In this document: positions 6,517-62,651 of the stretch, in pieces
How the letters are laid out: each line of letters begins with the position of its first letter
Position numbering within the stretch: the stretch's first letter is position 1
DNA from: a virus
Lineage: Duplodnaviria; Heunggongvirae; Uroviricota; Caudoviricetes
Direction: 5' to 3' (one strand)
DNA: 64,000 nucleotides
IMG/VR virus record: IMGVR_UViG_2571042445_000002
The notes under the pieces: generated by a model
Database searches by the model: none
Told to the model about the DNA's origin: nothing
What the model saw: only the letters and a program-made list of their open reading frames with translations
Made by a program: the position numbers and the translations under genes

Positions 6517-6564
6517 GCAAAACTGTGTTAGATAATTGAGTTTTGTTTTCTAACACAGTTTTGC
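6517..6564. promoter_or_regulatory. perfect 15-bp inverted repeat (GCAAAACTGTGTTAG ... CTAACACAGTTTTGC) containing the dispersed TGTTAGA/TCTAACA operator-like motif
   Basis: Arms at 6517-6531 and 6550-6564, 18-bp spacer; ends 5 bp before the rdgC start. Confidence 0.5.
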
Positions 6565-11911: not shown

Positions 11912-11975
11912 AAGTAAGAAATCTGAAGAGTGAAAATCACAAAGTGGAGAAGATTTAAGAAAAAGGAGGTGTTAG

Positions 11976-12260
11976 ATGAGTGCAATAGCGACCAGTGACA
12001 CAGTTTGTTCTGGTCATGGAGGATTCCCTCCGCGACCTGTAGCAGAAACAGTTTCCTGGTTTACCGTAAATGGAAAGCCAGTAGTTGTAGATGGGGGAGC
12101 GTTCCCCAGCCATACAGACGGAAATAGCGCGCACCCCGGATCAGCCGTATCGACGCGCTCATGGTTTGCAATAGGCGGGAAAGGAGTTGTTTGTGTGGGA
12201 GATCCCCTTTCTTGTGGCTCAGTCATCGCCAATGGTGAGGCAATTTTTCAGGTGTCATAA
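11976..12260 (+). CDS. PAAR-like spike-tip protein
   Basis: 94 aa, Gly/Pro/Cys-rich (CSGHGGFP..GGAFPSHTDG..GDPLSCGSV); strong SD AAGGAGG. Confidence 0.5.
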   Translation: MSAIATSDTVCSGHGGFPPRPVAETVSWFTVNGKPVVVDGGAFPSHTDGNSAHPGSAVSTRSWFAIGGKGVVCVGDPLSCGSVIANGEAIFQVS

Positions 12261-13054
12261 TGCTTGATTCAATCGCTGAAGTTAATGCATTCAAAATTCT
12301 AAATGCATCAGGCACAACTACGCCTGCATCTATCACGCTAAGTAAAACAGCGTCATCCAATGCCAGTTCTCTGGAAGAGAATATCCAGGCTCTTATCCTG
12401 AAGGATAAAGCATACCCGGCGTCGGTGGTTTCATGGGTCAATCAGCTTTCTGTCTTTTCAGAACAACTGAAAACTGTCAGTGCAGAAGCAACCAATTTAG
12501 CCGACTCGCTGTCTCCGTATACTTCGCCAACTGAATTACTTCAGATGAAAATTGGCTGGGAATGTTACGTCAAAGGTAATGAGTTATCTCCTGCGCCAGA
12601 ATTTGCTCTCGTAACAGTTATGGGAGATACCCTGCATCCGCAATCGCTTATTGACGCGTTGGCAGCATTTGAACTGGTGCCAATCACTTCAGCCATGACC
12701 GCTATAAATGCAAAAGTTCAGGCGTCAAGCGGGGAGGCTTCAGGCAACGGAAGTTCCACCGGAACAACACAGCAACCAGCACTAACAGAAGAAGAGATCA
12801 AAGCACTAAAAGACGCAGTGGAAGCAGCAACAGAACAAATAAATGCAATAAACAACACGAGCAGTAGTCTCTCAACACTTGTACAGCAAGTTAAGGACTC
12901 TACCGGAAAAGCCAAACAGGGACTGGAGAATGCTGTAGCTATTACGTTAACCGGTTCTCTACTGGGCGATGAAGTAATGAGTCCGGCAATCAGTTTGATC
13001 ATGCCACAAGGTGTGATCGATGCGCTCCAAAGCAACACTAAAAAGGAACCATAA
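12260..13054 (+). CDS. hypothetical protein
   Basis: 264-aa ORF, start overlaps PAAR stop (TAATG). Confidence 0.4.
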   Translation: MLDSIAEVNAFKILNASGTTTPASITLSKTASSNASSLEENIQALILKDKAYPASVVSWVNQLSVFSEQLKTVSAEATNLADSLSPYTSPTELLQMKIGWECYVKGNELSPAPEFALVTVMGDTLHPQSLIDALAAFELVPITSAMTAINAKVQASSGEASGNGSSTGTTQQPALTEEEIKALKDAVEAATEQINAINNTSSSLSTLVQQVKDSTGKAKQGLENAVAITLTGSLLGDEVMSPAISLIMPQGVIDALQSNTKKEP

Positions 13055-13124
13055 CCACACCATTTTAGCCCATAAATGGTTACAAATTGGTACACATATC
13101 ACACCAACAAAAAATCTGAAGAGG

Positions 13125-13583
13125 ATGGTTTTGAAAAAGATAATTTTGATAGTAGTTGCGCTTTTAGCCATTTATGGAATTTACCGTACTACGGCGGCAG
13201 TTATCGATCACATCAGGTATATCCGTTCCCTGGAAGACTCAAAATCACAACTTGAAAGCGAGAACAACACGCTTTCTACCGCATTGCAGTTAAGTGAAAA
13301 ATCGCGATCTGCCATGATGGCTGAAAACGAAAGAATTAAAACACTGGAGAAGGAGTACCAGCGCAAAACAGCAGAACTGAATACCAGCCTGATCAAACAA
13401 CGGGAGGAAAGCCAGAATGAAATTACTCGTCTTGAAACTGCTTTACGCAATGCTGGGGTTAATGATGTGCGTGTGCCTGATGACGTTATCAGGATGCAGC
13501 GGGAACGGGCAAAAGAAATCAATCAGCGTGCCAGTGAAAATTACCGTAGAAGCCACCAGCAAACCGCAGGCAAATCTGATTGA
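13125..13583 (+). CDS. i-spanin (Rz-like), start ATG 13125 or TTG 13131
   Basis: N-terminal signal-anchor KKIILIVVALLAIYGIY followed by long charged coiled-coil periplasmic domain. Confidence 0.5.
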   Translation: MVLKKIILIVVALLAIYGIYRTTAAVIDHIRYIRSLEDSKSQLESENNTLSTALQLSEKSRSAMMAENERIKTLEKEYQRKTAELNTSLIKQREESQNEITRLETALRNAGVNDVRVPDDVIRMQRERAKEINQRASENYRRSHQQTAGKSD

Positions 13584-13749
13584 TTATACCCCTTGCATAG
13601 TGCCAGAGGACACGCCTGTGCTGTTAAACAAGTATCCGGCATACACTGAACAGTTATTCAGCACTATCGATGAATGCAACCAAAGAAACGCACTGAATAA
13701 CCAAAGAAACAGGGAGATTTGGGAAGGGAAGGGGGATCAAGGCTCCTGA
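13417..13749 (+). CDS. o-spanin lipoprotein (Rz1-like), overlapping i-spanin in +1 frame
   Basis: Signal peptide with lipobox LSGC (MKLLVLKLLYAMLGLMMCVCLMTLSGC); Pro-rich mature region; starts inside Rz and extends 166 nt beyond it. Confidence 0.5.
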   Translation: MKLLVLKLLYAMLGLMMCVCLMTLSGCSGNGQKKSISVPVKITVEATSKPQANLIDYTPCIVPEDTPVLLNKYPAYTEQLFSTIDECNQRNALNNQRNREIWEGKGDQGS

Positions 13750-14219
13750 AGCCAGATGTCCTGGCTGTCAGCTTCTTCGAAACCGTGACAGACGTTAAAG
13801 TCACTCAAGCGATACTGGCGCTGACGGCCTCTATTTCGCTCATGCCAATGCATATATCCACCAGCAAATGCCAGCGGACAATCGCTATAGTCGATGTAGC
13901 CAATACCATTACCCAAACGCGCTTCGCGCGCCCCAGCTTTCCAGGACAGCAGAAAAGAGTCACGATCTGCCAGCATGACTACAAAATCATCTGGATCGCC
14001 TATGCAGTGAAGAATGCCTGCCTTGCATAACTGTTTGAGTGCCTTAGACTGACTCAGGATGTCTTCACCGTAATACTGAAAACAATCATCAACAATAGCG
14101 GGATAGCCAGCGGGTGGATTCAGGCTGGTTGGTATAGCTGACGCGATAGCCAGCATTAAACGATATTGTGTTTTCGATGGGTTCGCGTGACTCATGTTTC
14201 CTCTACTCACTGTCTCCAT
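13737..14219 (-). CDS. hypothetical protein
   Basis: 160-aa ORF on minus strand, second gene of a 2-gene leftward operon. Confidence 0.4.
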   Translation of the reverse strand: METVSRGNMSHANPSKTQYRLMLAIASAIPTSLNPPAGYPAIVDDCFQYYGEDILSQSKALKQLCKAGILHCIGDPDDFVVMLADRDSFLLSWKAGAREARLGNGIGYIDYSDCPLAFAGGYMHWHERNRGRQRQYRLSDFNVCHGFEEADSQDIWLQEP

Positions 14220-14599
14220 GCATTTTTCAGCTCCGGAATATCAGCCATTTCCACTAACTTCCGAAGCCCCGCGCTGACCTTCCCATTACCAACCGCAGCA
14301 AGCCAATCCCTTACTGACTTCGGCATATAAAGAGTGGTGGTTACAGGATCTTCCACTCTTACAGGTGTGCCCATTTGAGGCCACTTAACAGATGCCAAAA
14401 CGTCAGAAGGCGGGGTAAGCGCGGGAACATCAAGAATAGCCTTTCCTGAATGCAGAATCACGACTCGTTCAGCCAGGGAAAGAATATCTCTTTCGGTAAG
14501 AATTGATGACAGTTGAGCTTCTACAAGGCATCTGCTGCTTGTATTCAGAGAATGGCTTTTAGCACCATTTTTGTATGAAACGAAGATCTTGTACGCCAT
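14207..14599 (-). CDS. hypothetical protein
   Basis: 130-aa ORF; its upstream region 14600-14758 is AT-rich and carries operator-like motifs. Confidence 0.4.
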   Translation of the reverse strand: MAYKIFVSYKNGAKSHSLNTSSRCLVEAQLSSILTERDILSLAERVVILHSGKAILDVPALTPPSDVLASVKWPQMGTPVRVEDPVTTTLYMPKSVRDWLAAVGNGKVSAGLRKLVEMADIPELKNAWRQ

Positions 14600-14602
14600 T
14601 TG

Positions 14603-14680
14603 TTCTAATGTTATGTGTTAGAAAATTAAGATTAAAACACACCATGACGATTTTGTTAAAGAAAATTATTTTTCTAATGC
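14603..14680. promoter_or_regulatory. divergent control region with three copies of TTCTAAT/TGTTAGAAAATTAA operator-like motif and TTGACT -35-like hexamer
   Basis: GTTCTAAT 14603-14610, TGTGTTAGAAAATTAA 14616-14631, TTTTTCTAATGC 14669-14680, TTGACT 14684-14689. Confidence 0.45.
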
Positions 14681-14758
14681 TATTGACTAAATAACAAAGT
14701 GAGTATTGTCACCTCGTCAAAAGAATCTTCACGCCGCGCCCGAATTTAGGGTTTAACC

Positions 14759-16456
14759 GTGAACAAGAACATTGAGCCAGCTCGTAAGCGCGAGCGCGAG
14801 ATTATGAATCGGGCGGCAAGCGTCATGGCTATGACCGTCGATCCAACCACTGATGCTGCCGGTAACATGATTACCGACAACGAAGTGATGATGGCTAACC
14901 TGGAAAAAGCTATCCAGAAAGAGCCAATGTTTGAAGGCGTTGGACCAGAAGCAGCTCGCCAGATCATTGGTAGCTGGGCCATGTCTATTCATGAATACAA
15001 ACGCCAGCATGGGCATTATCCGGCAAGCGATGTATTAGCCAACGCCCATGTAGCACTTGAGCGCCTGATGATGGAGTCCGCTAAAGAGACGCATGAAGGC
15101 GCTGGCAAAGCCATGTTTGAATCAGTAGCCAAGGACATGCGCACCTCCGATGGTGTAATGAAGGTTGCACAATATGCCGCACTGATCCTGCCTGCTTCTC
15201 TCGGCGCAGCCACCAGCGACGCATGTACGTTTATCCCTTGTGATCGTGATGAAACCAATATTTACGAGCTGACCAACGTTGCTGGTACAAAATTCGGTAC
15301 ATTCGAGCAGGGCGATGAACTGAACATGCAGTCTGCTGGCGTGTATTCGCAGATGAAACGCCTGTACATCCTGACCGAAAAAGGCGATGGCAGCAAAACC
15401 ACCTTCCAGTTTGATATCCAGAACTTCGAAGGCCAGGCCTGCCCGCTGCGCCAGGGCTACAACAAACTGCTGATTAACCGCAAACCGTCCAAAGTAGATG
15501 ATGGTGACGGCAACCTGTATTTCAACGACAAAGACGTCAACGGCAACTCTTTCTCTGCTACAGCAAAAGTTAAATACGATACCGGCGTTATCGATATCAC
15601 CTTTAATGAAGCACCAGCAGAAGGCACAGAAATCGCTGTTCAGGTTGAAATCAACATTGAACGCAATCCGAGCCTGATACCAGTCATTAACCAGTCCATG
15701 CGCAATTACGCCCTGCGCCCGTCGCAGTACGTGATCGCATCCGAACATACGGTTATGACAGCATCTGACCTGAGCCGTGAACACGGACTCGAACTGGCAG
15801 CATTGCAATTCTCCGCAATGCGCAACTGGATTTCCCACGAAATCGATATGATGCGCCTGCGCACTCTGGTATTCCACACAGTTTACGGTCGTGAATTTGA
15901 TGTGGCACTGCCAGAAGCGCAGAACTACGAATCGTGGGTTGGTTTAATTCGCCATGTAGTGAACGCGCTGTCACAGGACATGGCTGACCGCACCCTGACT
16001 ACCGGTATCCGTGGTGGCTTTGCTGGTGGCGATGCTGCTAACTTCCTGCGTTCCTTACCGCCGCAGCACTTCCAGTTGGCACCGGGCTATGTACAGTCGC
16101 CGTACATTCAATACATCGGCACCCTGTTTGGTTCCATTCGTATCTACGAAGTGCCGAAGCCTATCTGCAAACAATTCCAGGAACATGGCTACGACTTTGG
16201 CCTGGACGACATCTACTTCTATGGTCGTGGCGAAGGCATTGGTAAAGCTGGCCTGGTCGCTGGTGATGCTGTGCCTGCTATTCCGTATGTCCACGAAACA
16301 AATCCAGCCCTGGTAAACCGCACCACTCTTTGGGGTACAGCAATCAACGATGTGCATCCGCGCAACGGTGAGAACTATTTCACTCGCCTTCGCCTGACAC
16401 GTTCGAAAGAAGGTGCGATTGACATGTTGAGCGGGCAAATCAACGAAAAAAAGTAG
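14759..16456 (+). CDS. major capsid protein candidate (large, ~62 kDa)
   Basis: 565-aa ORF adjacent to the sheath gene; GTG start at 14759 with AGGG upstream; size matches the P1 major head protein as recalled; assignment by size and position. Confidence 0.45.
   Translation: MNKNIEPARKREREIMNRAASVMAMTVDPTTDAAGNMITDNEVMMANLEKAIQKEPMFEGVGPEAARQIIGSWAMSIHEYKRQHGHYPASDVLANAHVALERLMMESAKETHEGAGKAMFESVAKDMRTSDGVMKVAQYAALILPASLGAATSDACTFIPCDRDETNIYELTNVAGTKFGTFEQGDELNMQSAGVYSQMKRLYILTEKGDGSKTTFQFDIQNFEGQACPLRQGYNKLLINRKPSKVDDGDGNLYFNDKDVNGNSFSATAKVKYDTGVIDITFNEAPAEGTEIAVQVEINIERNPSLIPVINQSMRNYALRPSQYVIASEHTVMTASDLSREHGLELAALQFSAMRNWISHEIDMMRLRTLVFHTVYGREFDVALPEAQNYESWVGLIRHVVNALSQDMADRTLTTGIRGGFAGGDAANFLRSLPPQHFQLAPGYVQSPYIQYIGTLFGSIRIYEVPKPICKQFQEHGYDFGLDDIYFYGRGEGIGKAGLVAGDAVPAIPYVHETNPALVNRTTLWGTAINDVHPRNGENYFTRLRLTRSKEGAIDMLSGQINEKK
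16447..16453 (+). other. candidate -1 frameshift slippery heptamer A AAA AAG at the last two sense codons of the capsid gene
   Basis: A-run 16446-16452 plus G 16453 in X XXY YYZ register relative to capsid frame; -1 frame is open for 33 codons to TAA at 16558-16560. Confidence 0.35.
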
Positions 16457-22098: not shown

Positions 22099-22330
22099 AA
22101 TGTTGACTATAGGCGAAATGGCTTACAACTAATGTTGACTGTACTCGATCCCGATCACAAAACATTGACTACACGCGACAAGAAATGAGAAAAGATTGAC
22201 TATAAGCGACAAATACTCAATGAAATAGCTGGTTTATCCATTGATCATGTGAAAAAGCTAATAACTAAATCCGCCAGCGTCAATGTTTGTCGCGTATAGT
22301 CAACGCTTAGAATCGCACACAGTCAATGTT
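22099..22330. repeat. incA-like iteron cluster downstream of repA (iterons in both orientations)
   Basis: TTGACTATAGGCG 22103, TTGACTGTACTCG 22135, TTGACTACACGCG 22166, TTGACTATAAGCG 22196; inverted CGCGTATAGTCAACG 22291, CGCACACAGTCAATG 22315. Confidence 0.55.
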
Positions 22331-23213
22331 ATGGATTTCGTTTATGGATCTGGAAACCTATTTTCCGACCATTCTTTATCTCTGAAAATTTAAGATATTC
22401 AACAGCTTCTAAGTCTTTCATGGCTTTACGAATCACACTGTTCTGAACGCTAACCGAGGACTTGAGGTTCAATCTGGCGCGAAGGCGCTCAATACTCACT
22501 GGCGCAGGGTTTGAAGGTAACGCTTCGAAAAACGTATAAAGCACCTTGGCTGTCTCTTTCCTGCCAAGTTTATCGAGCATTTTGAGCTTCAATATTCGCT
22601 TATAGTCAACGTAGTACAACTCAGACAACTGCTTCTGCGGTTGGATTCTTATAATGTCATTTTCAGTATCAAGTTCACTAAATGCCAATAAATTCATCTG
22701 GATATAACGAACATGTTCTTTGCTGGTGGGCAAGTTGAACTTCAGCAACGTCTGCTGAATACGCGTTAGAGAGTCGCCAATGCTCTTGCGAAAAGCCTTG
22801 GACAGCCGCTTCCTTGGATAACCGCAACGATCCACAAATTCAGAGAATGTTAGGGTGATCACACCATCATTGTCTGGTTTATAGTCAAACAATGCAGATG
22901 TAATGCCTATCCAAACCTTAAAATCAGTATCCATATCCAGGCGTGGCCCATGAATCTCAATACCCTGATACCCTTCCTGCTCTACAATCTTCAGGCTGGA
23001 CAGTTCTTCTGTCGCATCAGTTGAGTTAGTTAAACCGGCGTTCTTGCGACGTAAAGCAACACTGGTAGATTTCAATGTGGGAACAAACACCCCAAGCCGC
23101 AACAAAGCTATCGGCTGAATAGTGCTATTATTGTTAGGCTTTAAGCTGTGGATTTCTCCGGTATTCCCTGATATTTCCTCAACGTTCAGAAAGCCTTTTT
23201 TGTCATCTACCAT
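22329..23213 (-). CDS. repA: plasmid replication initiator RepA (P1 RepA-like)
   Basis: TIQPIALLRLGVFVP, HGPRLDMDTDFKVWIGI and C-terminal RLRARLNLKSSVSVQNSVIRKAMKDLEAVEYL parallel P1 RepA as recalled; flanked by iterons. Confidence 0.8.
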   Translation of the reverse strand: MVDDKKGFLNVEEISGNTGEIHSLKPNNNSTIQPIALLRLGVFVPTLKSTSVALRRKNAGLTNSTDATEELSSLKIVEQEGYQGIEIHGPRLDMDTDFKVWIGITSALFDYKPDNDGVITLTFSEFVDRCGYPRKRLSKAFRKSIGDSLTRIQQTLLKFNLPTSKEHVRYIQMNLLAFSELDTENDIIRIQPQKQLSELYYVDYKRILKLKMLDKLGRKETAKVLYTFFEALPSNPAPVSIERLRARLNLKSSVSVQNSVIRKAMKDLEAVEYLKFSEIKNGRKIGFQIHKRNP

Positions 23214-23261
23214 CCTGTTATTTCCTTGATTGACGGGGCTTTATAGCCAAATGAAAGATAC

Positions 23262-23505
23262 TTATCCACAGCCGTCTGAGGGCTGAGAGAATTATCGCAT
23301 ACAGTCAATGTTTATATCGCATATAGTCAACATTAAATCGCACATAGTCAACATTAAATCGCACATAGTCAACATTAAATCGCACATAGTCAATGTTGAT
23401 CGCCATTTAGGCCAGTGATGGCGCGGCTCGCAGCGATCCGGGATCTTCTTTGGATCTTACTGGTTCTCTTTGGGATCTATTTATTGGATCTACCCTGTGG
23501 ATAAA
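23262..23505. other. oriR-like plasmid origin: DnaA boxes, five 21-bp direct iterons, cluster of six GATC sites
   Basis: TTATCCACA 23262-23270; iterons TCGCAYAYAGTCAAYRTT at 23295, 23317, 23338, 23359, 23380; GATC at 23398, 23435, 23442, 23452, 23473, 23487; TGTGGATAA 23496-23504. Confidence 0.6.
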
Positions 23506-23575
23506 TAGGTTAAAGTCAAAATCACACACTCCCTATCCTCCAGCCAAACGAGTACCGACTTTTCTGGAGGAATCC

Positions 23576-30974: not shown

Positions 30975-31090
30975 CAAACCAGGCCCCACCAACCTGGGTG
31001 GGGCCATTTCTCAAAACAAAAGACCACTGGAAATCACAAACTGAACATACTGCCCTTCGATTTATTGCTTGTTAAAGGGGCTATGTTCGT

Positions 31091-35575: not shown

Positions 35576-35963
35576 GAGTGCTTTTGTGACCTTTTTTAGT
35601 AATACAATCCTTTGGTACAAAAAAGCCGCCGTCCAGTCAATGACGGCGGGCAAAATGAACACTCAGTTAGTGGTATCTGAGAGGGGGGCATTATATTCAC
35701 TGAATGACGCTTGTGAAGACTCACATGTCATCATTTTGTCCTCAAGAATCAGCTCACATCTTGCGCATTCAAGCGTATTTCTCTTTAAAGCCGTGTTTGG
35801 ACCATTTTGTTGATACGCGAATTTGGCATCCTCCACGCTCTGAGTGACGAGGTTTACGGACCACCGGGCCATCATATGCATCCATTTTGTGTGAATGGCA
35901 TTTAGTCGGGAAATAACAAACTGGATAAGTTGAAGCCGCGTTAAACGTCATTTCTGGAGGGGT

Positions 35964-39657: not shown

Positions 39658-39748
39658 AAGAGAGGGGCAGAATGCCCCTTTCTTCTTAAAATAGTCACCG
39701 AAATAACACACTTTTTACACTGCCTTTTTTACAGAAAGGTGGTTAATT

Positions 39749-41976: not shown

Positions 41977-42122
41977 AACTTCCTTGTTTGGTGGTTGCGT
42001 TTTTGGAAAAGCATTTCCGCATATGGAAAAACATCAGCATATGGTGAAAACAACGAAAAATTACTGATGAAATCACACACTGGATAAGCTGCCACGAAAT
42101 CGGAAACCTTTTGCGGTGAATC

Positions 42123-44820: not shown

Positions 44821-44945
44821 GCTAAAAGCTAGCTTAATTTTCTAACACAGTGTGTTTTTATACACTGTTGATCCGACGGCACGTGATCGAGTAGGATCGC
44901 GGTCACTGCTCCGGTAGCGACTGCCAAAAAAAGCAAAAGCCGCTG

Positions 44946-45652: not shown

Positions 45653-46036
45653 AAAACCAGTAATCAGGGAAGAACATACCAACCACTGCCTGGCGGCGGC
45701 AAAAGCGAGAGCTGCAAAGCGTCGTTCAGATGAGGGGCACGCAAAACGGCAGGCTCTGTATCGTACCGCTGAAAAGCTGGCAAAAAAATTTGCATGGATA
45801 CGTAGTGCCGCTACAGCAGTGAATAAGCCTAAACAATCCAGTGCCCTGGATTTCTCAATGGATTATTCTGGCTCCCAGGGGTGTGCAACCATTGGTGAAG
45901 CCTTTGACCTGATGAAACAGCGTGGCTATCGGTCTGAATTTGACCGGGAAGACTGGTCAATTCCGGAGGGCTTTCGGGGATGATGTTGCGATTGACTGTA
46001 CAATAACCGTGCGGCGGGAATTTCATCGCTCGAAAA

Positions 46037-46081
46037 TGTATGTTAGAAAATTAAATTGATGTTTCTAATCAAGAATGTATG
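46037..46081. promoter_or_regulatory. operator-like inverted motif TGTTAGAAAATTAAATTGATGTTTCTAAT
   Basis: Half-sites TGTTAGAAA and TTTCTAAT in inverted orientation; additional TTTCTAATG at 46131. Confidence 0.5.
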
Positions 46082-48736: not shown

Positions 48737-48848
48737 TCCCCTTTTGAGTAAGAACCTTCGGGGTGTGATTCTGCGAAATTAACACACTCCATACCCTCTC
48801 AAACCGTACCGCTTAAGGCGGATTTAACGGTTTTGAGGGGGGCTTCCT

Positions 48849-56419: not shown

Positions 56420-56593
56420 AAATAACAAGTTGGGTAAATGACATACAATTTACCCGGCTTGTTGACCCGCATCACCATTTACTCTAAAAACAAGTCCGAC
56501 CTGTTGCATCCGCCTATCTCTTCAGTAGTATTCCCCTCGGTTTTGATAAAACTAACGCTCTTGTTATTATCGTGTTCATGATTTCAGGAAGTT

Positions 56594-56609
56594 TGTGTTA
56601 GAAATTTGA
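56594..56609. promoter_or_regulatory. operator-like motif TGTGTTAGAAATTTGA abutting the VRR-NUC start codon
   Basis: Motif ends at the ATG 56609; no SD present. Confidence 0.45.
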
Positions 56610-57052
56610 TGCGAAGACGCAGGCATCATAGTGCGTATTCTGAAATATCCCCGCACGCTGCTGCACTGAGAGAGTTAGAAAGAAATCCTGACTTATTAAA
56701 ACGGAATTACGAACATTACGAACAGGTTCGCGTTCTGGATTGGCTGTATCGCAACATGCGATACGTGTATGAGCACACACACTCAACACCGAACGGCGGC
56801 CTGAGAGGCAAAAGGACAGCCATTAAGATGGTGGCAGAAGGTCAGAAGAAGGGCTATCCGGACCTTTCTATTGACCTTGCTCGTGGTGGGTATCACGGAA
56901 TGCGCATTGAGATGAAGCACGGGAGAAACCGTCTGACTCCCGAACAGCTCGTCTGGATGACTCGCCTCACGGAAGCAGGCTATTACTGCTTTGAGGCGCG
57001 CAGTGCCGATGAAGCCATAAAAGCTATCACTGAATATGTAAATCTTGATTAA
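56609..57052 (+). CDS. VRR-NUC domain nuclease
   Basis: YEHYEQVRVLDWL ... GYPDLSIDLARGGYHGMRIEMKHGRNRLTPEQ matches VRR-NUC (PD-(D/E)xK) pattern. Confidence 0.55.
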   Translation: MRRRRHHSAYSEISPHAAALRELERNPDLLKRNYEHYEQVRVLDWLYRNMRYVYEHTHSTPNGGLRGKRTAIKMVAEGQKKGYPDLSIDLARGGYHGMRIEMKHGRNRLTPEQLVWMTRLTEAGYYCFEARSADEAIKAITEYVNLD

Positions 57053-57575: not shown

Positions 57576-57646
57576 ACGGTCATAAACCCGCCAGTTGGCG
57601 GGTTTTTTGTTGCCTGAGTCTTTTTATTGAAATTGCATACTAATAA

Positions 57647-57670
57647 AATATGTTAGAAAACTAATTTCAA
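57647..57670. promoter_or_regulatory. operator-like motif AATATGTTAGAAAACTAATTTCAAG upstream of 57685 gene
   Basis: Core TGTTAGAAAA 57651-57660. Confidence 0.45.
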
Positions 57671-57684
57671 GAAAGGGAACAAAC

Positions 57685-58893
57685 ATGAGTCAGCAAGTAG
57701 AATCATCAAGCCTGGAGATCATCTCAACCGCAATTGAAACGCTGCGGACACAAATCGCGCTTATACAGAAACGAAATCCGGGCGATGACCTGTCAAAGCG
57801 ACTGCATGAGAGCGTCATTGCCACTACAGATAACCTGGTGGCGGAAATCAACCAGCTCCTTGATGATGGGGCAGTTGATTACAATAAGCTGGTGGATCAG
57901 TTTGAGGAATATCAGCAAGCCGTTAATGATGGCTTGATCCGTTTTTCTCAAGTCACTGGTGTATCAGCGACAGTTGAAAGCCTGGGGGATGCAGTTAATC
58001 AATTTGCCGCGAATATGCGTAATGAGATCGGCAATCTGGAGGCGCGTCTTGAGCAGGCAAATACACTGCGCAAATCTGCTGAAGTCGATTTGAGTCGTTA
58101 CAAAAAAGACTATCCGCCAAGCCTGACAAAACGACTGGATGTTGCGGAGAAAGATAACCGCACGCTGAAAAGAGAGCGTCGGGAACTAAAAGAGCGTTTA
58201 ACCAAGCTAAATCAGCAATGCGTTGAGTATCAAGGCGAACTCGTCACACTGCGTAAAAAGTTAGCAGCGGCGCAGAGCATTATTGAAACATTGAAACGAG
58301 AGTGCTCAGAGCTTGGTCATGATCTGAATCGCGCCTGTGGCATGGGGCAAAGGCCAGAGACATTCCCGCTAATGTATGACGGAAGAGAAGCTATTGCCTA
58401 TATCCATGAGTTTCCGCATGGTCTGGTCGCGGAGACTGGGCAACGTGGCGAAGCGTTGCTGACGGCAAATTACCATCAGCAAATCAGAACCAGCCGCCTG
58501 CTGACGATGGATGTGATCCCGTCAGTATGGGGAACGCCGCTTTACTACCGAATTCCTGGCTTCGAAACTGACTGGAATACCGACATAGACGAATGTCTGG
58601 CAGATAAAATTATGGCGTACCTTGAAACGGATTTTCCACGCTTGCATCGCCGGATTATGGACTCTAAGGATGCACCGATCGACGAATTGAAAATGCGTCC
58701 AGAGACGTTGGAGGCAATCAAGCAGACTGAGTTTGATACAGTGTTCAGTGTGGCCTGCATTCCAAGCAGCTTTCATGAAAGCATTCCGTTCATGCAGGGC
58801 GATCGCCGTCAGGAAATAATTGATGCTTGCCGGGTATGGGCGAACGAGTGGGATAAGAAGAACGGTGGAGTTGAAAATCTTTACGGGAAATAA
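57685..58893 (+). CDS. hypothetical protein with N-terminal coiled-coil
   Basis: 402 aa; SD AAAGGGAAC. Confidence 0.45.
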   Translation: MSQQVESSSLEIISTAIETLRTQIALIQKRNPGDDLSKRLHESVIATTDNLVAEINQLLDDGAVDYNKLVDQFEEYQQAVNDGLIRFSQVTGVSATVESLGDAVNQFAANMRNEIGNLEARLEQANTLRKSAEVDLSRYKKDYPPSLTKRLDVAEKDNRTLKRERRELKERLTKLNQQCVEYQGELVTLRKKLAAAQSIIETLKRECSELGHDLNRACGMGQRPETFPLMYDGREAIAYIHEFPHGLVAETGQRGEALLTANYHQQIRTSRLLTMDVIPSVWGTPLYYRIPGFETDWNTDIDECLADKIMAYLETDFPRLHRRIMDSKDAPIDELKMRPETLEAIKQTEFDTVFSVACIPSSFHESIPFMQGDRRQEIIDACRVWANEWDKKNGGVENLYGK

Positions 58894-58930
58894 TGTATTA
58901 GAAAATTAAAATTGTTTTTCTAACATATTG
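58893..58930. promoter_or_regulatory. operator-like palindrome ATGTATTAGAAAATTAAAATTGTTTTTCTAACATATTG
   Basis: Half-sites ATTAGAAAA and TTTTCTAAC inverted around AATTAAAATTG; second copy AGTGTTAGAAAGTAAATTTT at 59044-59063. Confidence 0.5.
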
Positions 58931-58981: not shown

Positions 58982-59044
58982 ATGTCGCTTGCGGGTTTGA
59001 TAGTCACTTCATTGTCTTTCCCCACCAGCATCAAACAATTTTAA
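58982..59044 (+). CDS. 20-codon hydrophobic small ORF (MSLAGLIVTSLSFPTSIKQF) enclosed by an 11-bp hairpin; candidate type I toxin-like peptide
   Basis: Stem 58964-58974 / 59019-29 sequesters the GGGGAG SD-like element; not in ORF track (below 60 aa). Confidence 0.25.
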   Translation: MSLAGLIVTSLSFPTSIKQF

Positions 59045-59553
59045 GTGTTAGAAAGTAAATTTTAAGGTAAGGGAAAGCTCCGGCACCGTGCAAATACATG
59101 CCCGGCAGGTTTAGTGCGTAAAGTGGTTTCAGCGAGAGCATTTTACGGAGTAAACGACAGTGACTTGAGCCACGGAAGGTCTTTTTATGGTGTTCATTGA
59201 TGATGATCTGGCAGTGAGTATGTTAAGTGGGCCAGGCTGCATCGGGTCATCATCAGTGCACATCCTCAACGTTAAGGAGGCGCAGAGTTGGGTTTTCCTC
59301 TTATTTTGCTGACTCTGAGTCTCCTTAACGTTGCGGTAATGCACCTATGCGGATGTGGCCTTGCATTGTGTCTTGAAAGAATGGGGTAAGGCCGGGGATA
59401 TCCTCAGGGGGAGGCACCCCCGCTGCAACGAACAGCCACAGACGGCAGTCGAGTGATGGAAACGTGCAAAGACTTTAAACCTCGTTACGGCTGGCGTGGC
59501 AAACGCGACAACCGAGACAGAGCGGTGACGGGCGGAGAGAGAGCCGCTTCAAG

Positions 59554-60238: not shown

Positions 60239-60313
60239 GATGGTGTAGCTCAGTGGTAGAGCAGTTGGCTGTTAACCAACTGGTCGGTGGTTCGAATCCA
60301 CTCACCATCGCCA
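60239..60313 (+). tRNA. tRNA-Asn (anticodon GTT)
   Basis: Cloverleaf parsed manually: acceptor GATGGTG/CACCATC, D-arm GCTC-AGTGGTA-GAGC, anticodon loop CTGTTAA, T-loop TTCGAAT, 3' CCA encoded. Confidence 0.8.
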
Positions 60314-60315
60314 AT

Positions 60316-60391
60316 GCCGGTTTAGCTCAGTTGGTAGAGCGCCTGCCTTGTAAGCAGGATGTCAGCGGTTCGAGTCCGTTAACCGGCACCA
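60316..60391 (+). tRNA. tRNA-Thr (anticodon TGT)
   Basis: Acceptor GCCGGTT/AACCGGC, anticodon stem CCTGC/GCAGG with loop CTTGTAA, T-loop TTCGAGT, CCA encoded; 2 nt after tRNA-Asn. Confidence 0.8.
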
Positions 60392-60392
60392 A

Positions 60393-60479
60393 CACAACAG
60401 GTAAGGGTATTTTGCGACGTCGGAGATCGCCGAGCTTGGCAGAGGGTTCGAATCCCTACGAAGTACCCTTACCGTTGTG
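60393..60479 (+). other. tRNA-like element: canonical T-loop (GGTTCGAATCC) and D-arm-like hairpin enclosed by a 16-17 bp inverted repeat; lacks anticodon arm (pseudo-tRNA or structured RNA)
   Basis: IR CACAACAGGTAAGGGTA 60393-60409 / TACCCTTACCGTTGTG 60464-60479; cannot be folded into a full cloverleaf. Confidence 0.3.
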
Positions 60480-60579
60480 ATGAATGCACAGGCTGATGTG
60501 CCGCAACTACAGTAGTGCGCGCTTTGCGGGGCTTGCTACAACCCTGTGTCGGAGTTCAGCACCGACCATCACAATCACT

Positions 60580-60666
60580 GGAGAGTAGGGAGCATGGTGC
60601 TCAAGCGGTCTTGAAAACCGTCCCATTGCGCAAGCGATGATGGTTCGATTCCATTACTCTCCGCCA
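60580..60666 (+). tRNA. atypical tRNA-like gene, possibly tRNA-Ser(TGA) with long variable arm and unusual D-arm
   Basis: Acceptor GGAGAGT/ACTCTCC + G + CCA; anticodon arm GCGGT-CTTGAAA-ACCGT; T-arm GATGG-TTCGATT-CCATT; D-arm atypical (5-bp stem, 3-nt loop). Confidence 0.35.
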
Positions 60667-60922
60667 GCGCAACGTTAAGAGTATTTGGCTAATTAAGCGA
60701 ATGCCGGAAGCAGAACCGGATCACCAAATGCTCTTACCATTGCGGTGAATGCGGCTAAGCGCACGCGGAACAGTTAAAACAGTAAAGGTGGTCTTTTTAC
60801 TGGCGTAACGAGAATCCATAAGTGATCCGGCGTTAATTGTTAACTGGTTAACGTCACCGGGAGGCACCCGGCACCGCAACCTAACAGCAATGGCGTTTTG
60901 TCTTAAAAGGTGGCTGCAAGTG

Positions 60923-61051
60923 ATGGATTTTTGGGCGTTTGCCGATAAAAACCCGGAGTGGACATTATTGTTTCTGCTGGTGGTTGCATACGGGGTAGAG
61001 CAAGCGGCAAAAGCCTTACGCGGTTCTGGCAAAAAGCGTAAGCGTAATTAA
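60923..61051 (+). CDS. 42-aa small membrane protein candidate (MDFWAFADKNPEWTLLFLLVVAYGVEQAAKALRGSGKKRKRN)
   Basis: Single hydrophobic helix plus basic C-terminus; SD AAGGTGG; located between tRNA-like genes; below ORF-track size cutoff. Confidence 0.3.
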   Translation: MDFWAFADKNPEWTLLFLLVVAYGVEQAAKALRGSGKKRKRN

Positions 61052-61060
61052 CAGTAATCT

Positions 61061-61136
61061 GGCCCTTTAGCTCAGTGGTTAGAGCGGGCGACTCATAATC
61101 GCACGGTCACCGGTTCAAGTCCGGTAGGGGCCACCA
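61061..61136 (+). tRNA. tRNA with CAT anticodon, ileX-like (tRNA-Ile2/lysidine type or elongator Met)
   Basis: GGCCCTTTAGCTCAGTGGTTAGAGCGGGCGACTCATAATCGC...GGTTCAAGTCCGGTAGGGGCCACCA closely resembles E. coli ileX as recalled. Confidence 0.8.
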
Positions 61137-62164: not shown

Positions 62165-62544
62165 TGTACGAGGCTACTAAATTACGCACTGAGGATGCGA
62201 TGCACATTGGTTGGGACATCATCACCTGCAAGATAACATCATGCAAGGCTACACGCACAGACGCCGGACACAAGAGCACAATATCAGGTTATGTCGTGAT
62301 GTCAGTCAGGAGTGTGCGCATACGCTTCAGATGGAAAGCCTGCCAGGTTACATCATCAATGCCGCTTACCGTCGAGCAGGATTATTTATGCTTACCCGAA
62401 ATAGACGGAGCGTTGCTGGTGGGCAATAGTGGTCGAAAAGCCGATTTTGAAGCCAGTCTGAAGATGGCGCAGGCGGTGATCAACAAACATAAAGGGAAGT
62501 GGGAGGCAAAAGTTAAGCATGTTGTTCGTTTATCCCGCTGGTAG
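62161..62544 (+). CDS. hypothetical protein
   Basis: 127-aa ORF overlapping previous stop. Confidence 0.35.
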   Translation: MMYEATKLRTEDAMHIGWDIITCKITSCKATRTDAGHKSTISGYVVMSVRSVRIRFRWKACQVTSSMPLTVEQDYLCLPEIDGALLVGNSGRKADFEASLKMAQAVINKHKGKWEAKVKHVVRLSRW

Positions 62545-62577
62545 TGTTAGCAAATTGATATTAATTTTCTAATACAT
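62543..62577. promoter_or_regulatory. operator-like motif AGTGTTAGCAAATTGATATTAATTTTCTAATACAT
   Basis: Inverted half-sites GTTAGCAAA / TTTTCTAAT; TTTTCTAATACAT resembles the P1 C1 operator core (CTCTAATAAAT) as recalled. Confidence 0.5.
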
Positions 62578-62651
62578 CATGTTTTTGACAGTCTTCTCAG
62601 TATTAACAAGCTGATTATCATCCCCTCGGTCTTTTTCTATCCGGGGGATAA

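Follow-up and report, generated by a model that had tools for sequence, protein, structure and literature searches.

The window analysed here, a stretch of 64,000 nucleotides of viral DNA (Caudoviricetes; IMG/VR record IMGVR_UViG_2571042445_000002), is by its sequence a D6-like phage-plasmid of the P1 family. Between its spanin genes and its major capsid protein gene it carries two small minus-strand genes, the orthologues of orf52 and orf53 of Escherichia phage D6 (MF356679). We propose that these two conserved genes form an early, repressor-controlled accessory operon, a reading to which we give a probability of roughly one half. The proposal is founded on a predicted leftward promoter in the AT-rich spacer ahead of the capsid gene and on two copies of a dispersed operator-like motif placed over and beside it. 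The window is collinear with D6 in reverse orientation, and D6 itself is annotated as a P1-family phage-plasmid. The region 13400-15000 is 85.5% identical to D6 over its full length and 98-99% identical to several E. coli plasmids of about 90 kb; it is matched in 121 plasmid records, almost all of them non-mobilizable, and in 21 IMG/VR contigs.

The two open reading frames reported by the first-pass annotation are both present in the list of open reading frames of the window, on the minus strand at 13737-14219 (160 residues) and 14207-14599 (130 residues). The promoter-proximal frame (14207-14599) is the orf52 orthologue, with 130 residues and 78.5% amino acid identity to D6_52. The downstream gene needs a correction: instead of the 160-residue product proposed earlier, which would start at 14219, it almost certainly starts at the ATG at 14195, judging from the signals around that codon and from its homologues, and encodes 152 residues (13737-14195). 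This start is preferred because the Shine-Dalgarno sequence GAGG (14203-14200) precedes it, all homologues start there, the PHROG profile covers residues 9-160 of the longer frame, and D6 annotates a protein of 152 residues. So defined, the orf53 orthologue is 98.7% identical to D6_53. The two genes are separated by an intergenic gap of 11 nucleotides (14196-14206, minus strand), which holds the GAGG of orf53, and this arrangement suggests that they are co-transcribed. No terminator-like site was found in 13300-15000 by a standard scan, and an Rfam scan of the same interval returned chance-level matches only.

Several measures show that both genes are real and under strong purifying selection, and are not chance reading frames. 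The ratios of nonsynonymous to synonymous substitution rates (dN/dS) against D6 are low, 0.083 for orf52 and 0.013 for orf53. Moreover, both products match a PHROG profile over their full length (PHROG 7830, E=4e-71, 1-130 of 130 for orf52; PHROG 8101, E=6e-97, 1-152 of 152 for orf53), and synteny is kept in clades in which orf52 is only 62% identical. The direct orthologues in D6, D6_52 and D6_53, occupy the corresponding place between spanins and capsid, with the same orientation and no apparent difference in function; D6 and the Salmonella clade (the clade with the 62% identical orf52) share the gene order spanins, orf53, orf52, capsid, and more than 100 plasmids carry the two genes in synteny. 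A lack of conservation in related elements had been named beforehand as a result that would speak against the unit, and the pair turned out to be kept across the D6-like elements. In D6 both genes are annotated as 'hypothetical protein', and the public names in the orf52 and orf53 clusters are without exception the same. The G+C contents of the two genes, 46.8% and 49.5%, equal the genome average.

The spacer from which the unit diverges (14600-14758) is 159 bp long and has a G+C content of 32.1% against 47.7% for the whole window, which places it among the lowest 1% of 159-bp windows. The description of a leftward two-gene unit diverging from an AT-rich region ahead of the capsid gene stands. 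On the leftward strand of this spacer we predict a sigma-70-type promoter at 14631-14659, with a -35 hexamer TTAACA (14659-14654), a spacing of 17 nucleotides, and TGt with the -10 hexamer TTTAAT (14636-14631); transcription would start near 14624. D6 (TTAACA/TTTAAT) and the Salmonella clade (loci L037 and L021, TTCACA/TTTAAT) have retained the hexamers and the 17-nucleotide spacing, and the sequence between the hexamers has diverged. Such preservation in three clades amid a diverged spacer is the pattern of a functional promoter, the promoter itself being a prediction.

The same spacer contains three copies of TTCTAA/TTAGAA, which had been described as three operator-like motifs and which are not equivalent to one another. 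Two of them fit a family of sites dispersed over the genome. Site A (14611-14636, plus strand; core GTTAGAAAAT at 14617-14626) scores 30.7 bits with a weight matrix built without the spacer's own sites, as was done for all sites in the spacer, and with the full matrix it is the strongest copy of the motif in the window. It spans the leftward promoter from -10 to about +13. Its 10-bp core is invariant in eight diverged relatives, over a spacer that as a whole is only about 70% identical. Site B (14659-14684, minus strand; core ATTAGAAAAA at 14678-14669) scores 19.3 bits, adjoins the leftward -35 hexamer and lies directly upstream of the late-promoter motif of the capsid gene. Sites A and B thus face inward and flank the leftward promoter, with the capsid late promoter just beyond site B. 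The third copy, a TTCTAAT next to the orf52 start codon (14600-14614), was ruled out as a member of the family: it scores below 3 bits and is not conserved, reading CTCTAAT in D6 and CCGTAAT at locus L023. The copy at 14599-15 matches 13 of the 17 positions of the P1 operator Olpa, by eye only, and is likewise not conserved.

The family to which sites A and B belong is an asymmetric motif of about 19 bp, tRTGTTAGAAAAYTAAtnT (also given as tGTGTTAGAAAAYTAAtTT). It was defined from the contexts of TTCTAAT, followed by a scan with GTTAGAAAAT at no more than one mismatch and finally by a weight matrix of 26 nucleotides. At a threshold of at least 12 bits there are 14 sites in the window, compared with 0.6-0.8 in shuffled sequence, and 17 in D6, and nearly all of them are intergenic. 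The motif occurs singly or as inverted pairs of 28 bp. Sites are located ahead of lpa, of the icd/anti-repressor (immI) operon, of hrdC and of ref, as well as between pro and repL and at the end of cre. The c1 gene is situated just outside the window; D6 and a plasmid of the clade of the window (98.9% identical over 13400-15000) both encode a homologue, with a motif site 8 bp upstream of the c1 ATG in each. The orientation of the motif varies, being toward the gene at c1, immI and ref and away from it at repL and cre. Together with the palindromic pairs, this variation fits an operator better than a promoter. From the position and the arrangement of its copies we infer that the D6-type C1 repressor, of which WP_029701835 is an example, uses this motif as its operator. 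The other copies in the window, found as single sites or 28-bp inverted pairs at 6521-6560, 44827-44852, 46036-46061, 56591-56616, 57646-57671, 58891-58930, 59041-59066 and 62540-62579, lie upstream of hrdC-like, repL-like, icd/anti-repressor, pmgM-like, pmgS-like and lpa-like genes and of the tRNA cluster, and together they make up a candidate map of the regulon of that repressor.

This arrangement resembles that of the C1-controlled early operons of P1 (Plpa/Olpa, Pdmt/Odmt and Pc1/Oc1ab). In these operons a host-type promoter is overlapped by an asymmetric operator of about 17-19 bp, and the operators occur as single sites and 28-bp inverted pairs, have an AT-rich inner half and are dispersed over the genome. 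The P1 record (AF234172) lists C1 operators at lpa (Olpa), at c1 (the bivalent 28-bp Oc1ab, and Oc1c-e) and at uhr-hrdC-dmt (Odmt). Of the genes that carry the motif, c1, lpa and hrdC/dmt are by this record orthologous to genes with a C1 operator in P1, and a homologous repressor is encoded: the C1 proteins of D6 and P1 are distantly homologous, with 21% identity (E=2e-8). P1 has further C1 operators at ref, immI and kilA-repL. The difference lies in the operator sequence itself, which is tGTGTTAGAAAAYTAAtTT in the window and ATTGCTCTAATAAATTT in P1, and an identity between the repressors of only 21% fits a diverged operator. In short, the unit shares with a P1-type operon a dispersed mono- or bivalent operator-like motif and its overlap with a promoter, here a predicted one, and it lacks a match to the P1 consensus.

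Taken at face value, the layout suggests a simple course of events. In the lysogen a C1-type repressor, bound to site A over the transcription start and to site B next to the -35 hexamer, would keep the unit silent. Once the lysogen is induced or a cell is infected, transcription by the host RNA polymerase would begin immediately, so that the unit would be early and would not depend on the Lpa-type late promoter by which the capsid gene is expressed from this spacer. Neither product is structural; that of orf52 is a fast-evolving basic protein of two domains, and that of orf53 an extremely conserved acidic one with an invariant R..FL, an invariant H and an invariant CHG.

A number of observations weigh against this reading. 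At position 2 the proposed -10 hexamer TTTAAT does not have the strongly conserved A, and a standard sigma-70 scan of 13300-15000 reported no promoter, a miss that is explained by that same missing A. Site A is directed at the capsid gene and could act there instead. Site B is degenerate in D6, with a score of 9.4 bits against 19.3 bits in the window and 13.2 bits at L037 of the Salmonella clade. In addition, no match to the P1 operator consensus ATTGCTCTAATAAATTT occurs in the window with four or fewer mismatches, and the binding of C1 to the motif is deduced solely from the placement of the sites and the arrangement of the copies. The motif is also found upstream of pmgS-like and pmgM-like genes, which are putative morphogenetic genes, so that the class it marks is not purely 'early'. 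Finally, orf52 has no clear Shine-Dalgarno sequence. The first-pass annotation had suggested an early or regulatory role under repressor control. The early, repressor-controlled class remains the best reading of motif and promoter; for a regulatory role we found no positive evidence, and a profile test for a ribbon-helix-helix domain failed (see below).

The spacer was earlier called the capsid promoter region as a whole. It does hold an element for the capsid gene, but that element is separate from the leftward promoter and resembles a late promoter. It lies at 14685-14711 on the plus strand (GACTAAATAACAAAGTGAGTATTGT, with a -10-like TATTGT at 14704-14709) and is conserved in relatives. The corresponding motif, GAAATMACAMACTGnnTAnnnT, consists of GAAATMACAMACTG, two bases and TAnnnT, and its matrix was derived from seven window sites after the sequences ahead of clearly late operons had been compared with one another. 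In the window it is found upstream of the capsid and portal genes and of lydA, R, ddrB, darB, pmgB and upfC. The copies at 11930-11956, 23515-23541, 31027-31053 and 35907-35933 precede, in the order listed, the homologues of upfC, pmgB, R and lydA, and those at 39697-39723, 42066-42092 and 48773-48799 precede the homologues of ddrB, portal and darB, respectively. Without any training on D6, the matrix recovered the orthologous sites of that phage as well as sites ahead of the putative D6 endolysin and mat. The capsid element has the position and the logic of LP23, the promoter of the capsid gene of P1. The difference with the Lpa-dependent late promoters of P1 is that these have a 9-bp palindrome, AAGTNACTT, followed by 4 nucleotides, as compared with GAAATMACAMACTG and 2 nucleotides in the window; the -22 palindrome of the P1 late promoters, AAGTGACTT, taken from the annotated LP23, is absent from the intergenic regions of the window. 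Within 14600-14758 the late motif has a single match (22.7 bits, plus strand, capsid side) and none on the minus strand. The late element of the spacer thus belongs to the capsid gene and not to the two-gene unit, which has no late element on its own coding strand as an Lpa-type late operon would.

Despite their close linkage the two genes differ strongly in their rate of change. In most D6-like elements the amino acid identity to the window is 96-100% for orf53, about 87% for the capsid protein, 71-88% for the i-spanin and 62-79% for orf52; at the most distant D6-like locus (L025) these values are 82%, 78%, 51% and 41%, respectively. This contrast implies that orf53 is more constrained than the capsid protein and that orf52 evolves fast. 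Moreover, the synonymous divergence (dS) from D6 is 0.43 for orf53 and 1.65 for orf52, and a mosaic boundary is located at the junction of the two genes (14196-14220), where the identity to D6 falls from 90-99% to 66-84%. More specifically, the identity is 90-99% over the spanins and orf53, 66-84% over orf52 and the spacer, and 93% over the leader and start of the capsid gene. The difference in dS and the drop in identity indicate that orf52 and orf53 have different histories and have been reassorted between lineages.

The statement that neither product is recognisable was confirmed, since profile searches, searches of sequences in the Protein Data Bank (PDB) and fold searches were all negative; sequence-profile searches of the PDB with three alignments (A1, A2 and A3) gave nothing significant. 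The orf53 product is an acidic protein of 152 residues (17 kDa, isoelectric point 5.4) without a match in Pfam, NCBIfam, PADLOC or the PDB sequences. A Pfam scan of 15 diverse homologues at E<=10 gave scattered single matches only, and PADLOC returned no defence family at E<=1 for the product of either orf52 or orf53. The structure model of orf53 is poor, with a predicted local distance difference test (pLDDT) score of 49. Close relatives of the protein are few, but a profile search extended the family to at least 370 proteins (370 were retrieved), the alignments of which show Y41, R78, F81, L82, G88, G95, F110, G113, H116 and C136-H137-G138 to be invariant. The anti-restriction protein KlcA/ArdB (PDB 2kmg) was considered as a relative, the family segment DRxDFLxxFAAGxxEA locally resembling DRYHFLRGFAAGHPEA of KlcA. 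This candidate was rejected: the segment is internal in the orf53 family and C-terminal in KlcA, the sequence and domain E values are 1.8 and 10, and none of 15 family members matched a Pfam anti-restriction family.

The surroundings of the orf53 relatives are diverse. In plasmid-like contigs of about 87 kb from Vibrio (L026-L028, 5001-6834) the homologue follows a gap of 445 bp and opens an operon that continues with genes for a PadR-like regulator (PHROG 13512, E=1e-28) and a RecA-dependent nuclease of the Ref type. The genes for RdgC and oligoribonuclease flank it in Vibrio phage douglas 12A4, and on a Rosenbergiella contig it has an unrelated upstream partner; orf52 showed no similarity to the upstream partners of the homologues in either the Rosenbergiella contig or douglas 12A4. 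In Colwellia, Paraglaciecola and Thalassomonas the relatives are single chromosomal genes in housekeeping surroundings. On the Alteromonadales chromosomal contigs (L029, L031, L032 and L033, 6001-6405) they encode 134-135 residues; among their neighbours are a gene for either an M50 peptidase or an alpha/beta hydrolase, on the upstream side, and genes for DUF480, YicC and RNase PH close by. The orf53 family is therefore not confined to mobile elements.

The orf52 product is in contrast a basic protein (130 residues, 14 kDa, isoelectric point 9.4), and relatives were found in D6-like elements only (10 clusters, word-indexed search). It gave no match in Pfam, NCBIfam, PADLOC, PDB sequences or fold searches. 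An AlphaFold2 model (pLDDT 81) predicts an N-terminal domain of the order beta-beta-alpha-alpha-beta-beta-alpha and a C-terminal tail of two helices. In the model these helices (94-103 and 108-119) follow a low-confidence segment and are compatible with, though not diagnostic of, a ribbon-helix-helix (RHH) domain of the CopG/Arc/MetJ type. A test of the tail (TLYMPKSVRDWLAAVGNGKVSAGLRKLVEMA) as such a domain gave no RHH Pfam match at E<=10, with five C-terminal fragments or with the full-length protein, and the assignment was dropped. A superficial counterpart in P1 is UpfA, a protein of unknown function that also has 130 residues and is encoded right after the spanin-like genes, as the last gene of upfC-upfB-ppfA-mlp-upfA. 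The two differ in that orf52 is on the strand opposite to the spanins and has no detectable sequence similarity to UpfA, a tblastn search with orf52 leading to D6 only.

With respect to the function of the products, our best guess, made with low confidence, is an early accessory function exerted on a conserved target in the host or in DNA metabolism. It is favoured because P1 lacks both genes, because the phage homologues of orf53 have recombination and nuclease genes of the early region around them, and because of the properties of the products, orf53 being acidic and extremely constrained and orf52 basic and variable. The absence of orf52 and orf53 from P1, as found by comparison with its sequence and record, also implies that they are probably dispensable for the basic P1-type life cycle. 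A more specific version, rather unlikely in our view, would make orf53 the phage-plasmid member of a new family of small enzymes or host-factor-binding proteins, marked by the invariant R..FL, H and C-H-G and common to Alteromonadales chromosomes and the early regions of phage-plasmids of Vibrio and enterobacteria. In D6-like elements, which keep it more strictly than the capsid protein, it would have a hitherto unrecognised part in early host takeover or anti-defence, with the fast-evolving orf52 as a lineage-specific partner or specificity factor.

One alternative is that the unit is a moron, that is, a cassette expressed by the prophage from its own host-type promoter, with a fitness, exclusion or defence function and without repression by the motifs. 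The unit indeed is a self-contained cassette on the opposite strand between two late operons, has a sigma-70-like promoter of its own and an AT-rich upstream region, is missing from P1, and has in orf53 a gene whose relatives also occur singly in Alteromonadales chromosomes. The strongest copy of the motif nevertheless lies over the predicted start and a second copy adjoins the -35 hexamer. Moreover, the genes are not foreign-looking in their G+C content, no PADLOC defence model matched, and orf53 is near-invariant across the D6-like elements, unlike variable cargo. We consider this explanation unlikely.

The orientation of site A leads to another explanation, in which the operator-like sites act on the capsid side, or serve for anchoring or looping of the repressor, and the unit is controlled otherwise, for instance by autoregulation through orf52. 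Besides being oriented to the capsid gene, site A contains the hexamer TAAGAT, site B adjoins the late-promoter motif of the capsid gene, and gene 23 of P1 has predicted sigma-70 promoters beside LP23. The TAAGAT hexamer, however, is not preceded by a credible -35 sequence, and it is on the leftward strand that the arrangement of -35, 17 bp and -10 is conserved. As to autoregulation, orf52 is basic and its modelled two-helix tail could bind nucleic acid, but the protein matches no DNA-binding family and no additional conserved palindrome was found that could be its site. Action on the capsid side or autoregulation by orf52 is, on balance, quite improbable.

The evidence is strongest against the two remaining explanations, because the spacer has no late motif on its minus strand and orf53 is found alone or with unrelated partners. 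The position of the unit between the spanin genes and the major capsid gene might suggest late accessory genes for head assembly or lysis that are expressed with their neighbours. This is very unlikely, as the late motif that precedes the capsid, portal, holin, tail-fibre, dar and pmgB genes does not face the unit, the neighbouring late operons are all on the opposite strand and cannot supply transcription by read-through, P1 makes virions without orf52 and orf53, and some relatives of orf53 are located in chromosomes, outside phages. A toxin-antitoxin or abortive-infection module is hardly credible, considering that no toxin, antitoxin or defence family was matched, that orf53 homologues are solitary in many chromosomes and have unrelated partners in other plasmids, that the difference in dS and the mosaic boundary point to different histories of the two genes, and that the element already has modules of the Phd/Doc and HigBA types. 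The early, repressor-controlled operon therefore remains the reading that we prefer.

To the right of the unit, the divergent major capsid protein gene (14759-16456, plus strand; PHROG 1014) is P1 gp23-like, its product being 87.6% identical to the major capsid protein of D6 and 44.7% identical to P1 gp23. To the left are an i-spanin gene (13020-13583) and an overlapping o-spanin gene (13417-13749), both on the plus strand, which match Rz-like PHROGs (E=2e-15 and 6e-7), with a lipobox LSGC. The spanin genes close a late upfC-upfB-spanin operon on the plus strand and run convergently toward orf53, with a 13-bp overlap at the 3' end of the latter. The P1 counterpart of this operon is upfC-upfB-ppfA-mlp-upfA, and between it and gene 23 P1 has the plasmid replicon and then the par genes. 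Given this different content between spanins and capsid, the D6 group has orf53 and orf52 where P1 has other material.

Some further observations concern the element at large. The D6 equivalents of the spanin pair (orf55 and orf54) are annotated as hypothetical proteins only. The upfC homologue (11976-12260) contains a PAAR motif (Pfam PF05488, E=6e-7), which suggests a tail-spike tip protein rather than an 'unknown protein function'. In addition to the Phd/Doc-type and HigBA-type modules mentioned above, the element has at least four direct repeats of about 21 bp (aaatcgcacatagtcaacatt) at 23214-23449, upstream of the minus-strand gene 22329-23213. The D6 gene syntenic to the latter (orf42) is annotated as repA-like, and the repeats look like iterons for plasmid replication. 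Four tRNA genes (Asn, Thr, Ser and Met) are located at 60239-61136 on the plus strand, like the genes that flank them; in the D6 record there are three tRNAs, with no tRNA-Met among them, and their strand is opposite to that of the adjacent genes. This contrast in strand and number is probably a difference in annotation.

Database entries for the two genes already exist, as hypothetical proteins and as PHROGs without a known function, and the D6-type operator and late-promoter motifs may already have been published. The present analysis adds the correction of a start codon, the dissection of the spacer, the two motifs, the contrast in conservation between the two genes and a wider orf53 family. 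The locus itself is an ordinary accessory operon with the P1-style logic that is expected in this group, and the general view of P1-family biology is unchanged. Nevertheless, D6-like phage-plasmids are common in E. coli and Salmonella and their regulatory map has largely been inferred from P1; for the D6 group an operator motif and a late-promoter motif, both testable, are now provided, and one orphan operon is placed in the repressor-controlled class. Furthermore, orf53 is a small uncharacterised protein that is under stronger constraint than the major capsid protein and that has chromosomal relatives in marine bacteria. Its function, if found, would annotate several hundred 'hypothetical proteins'.

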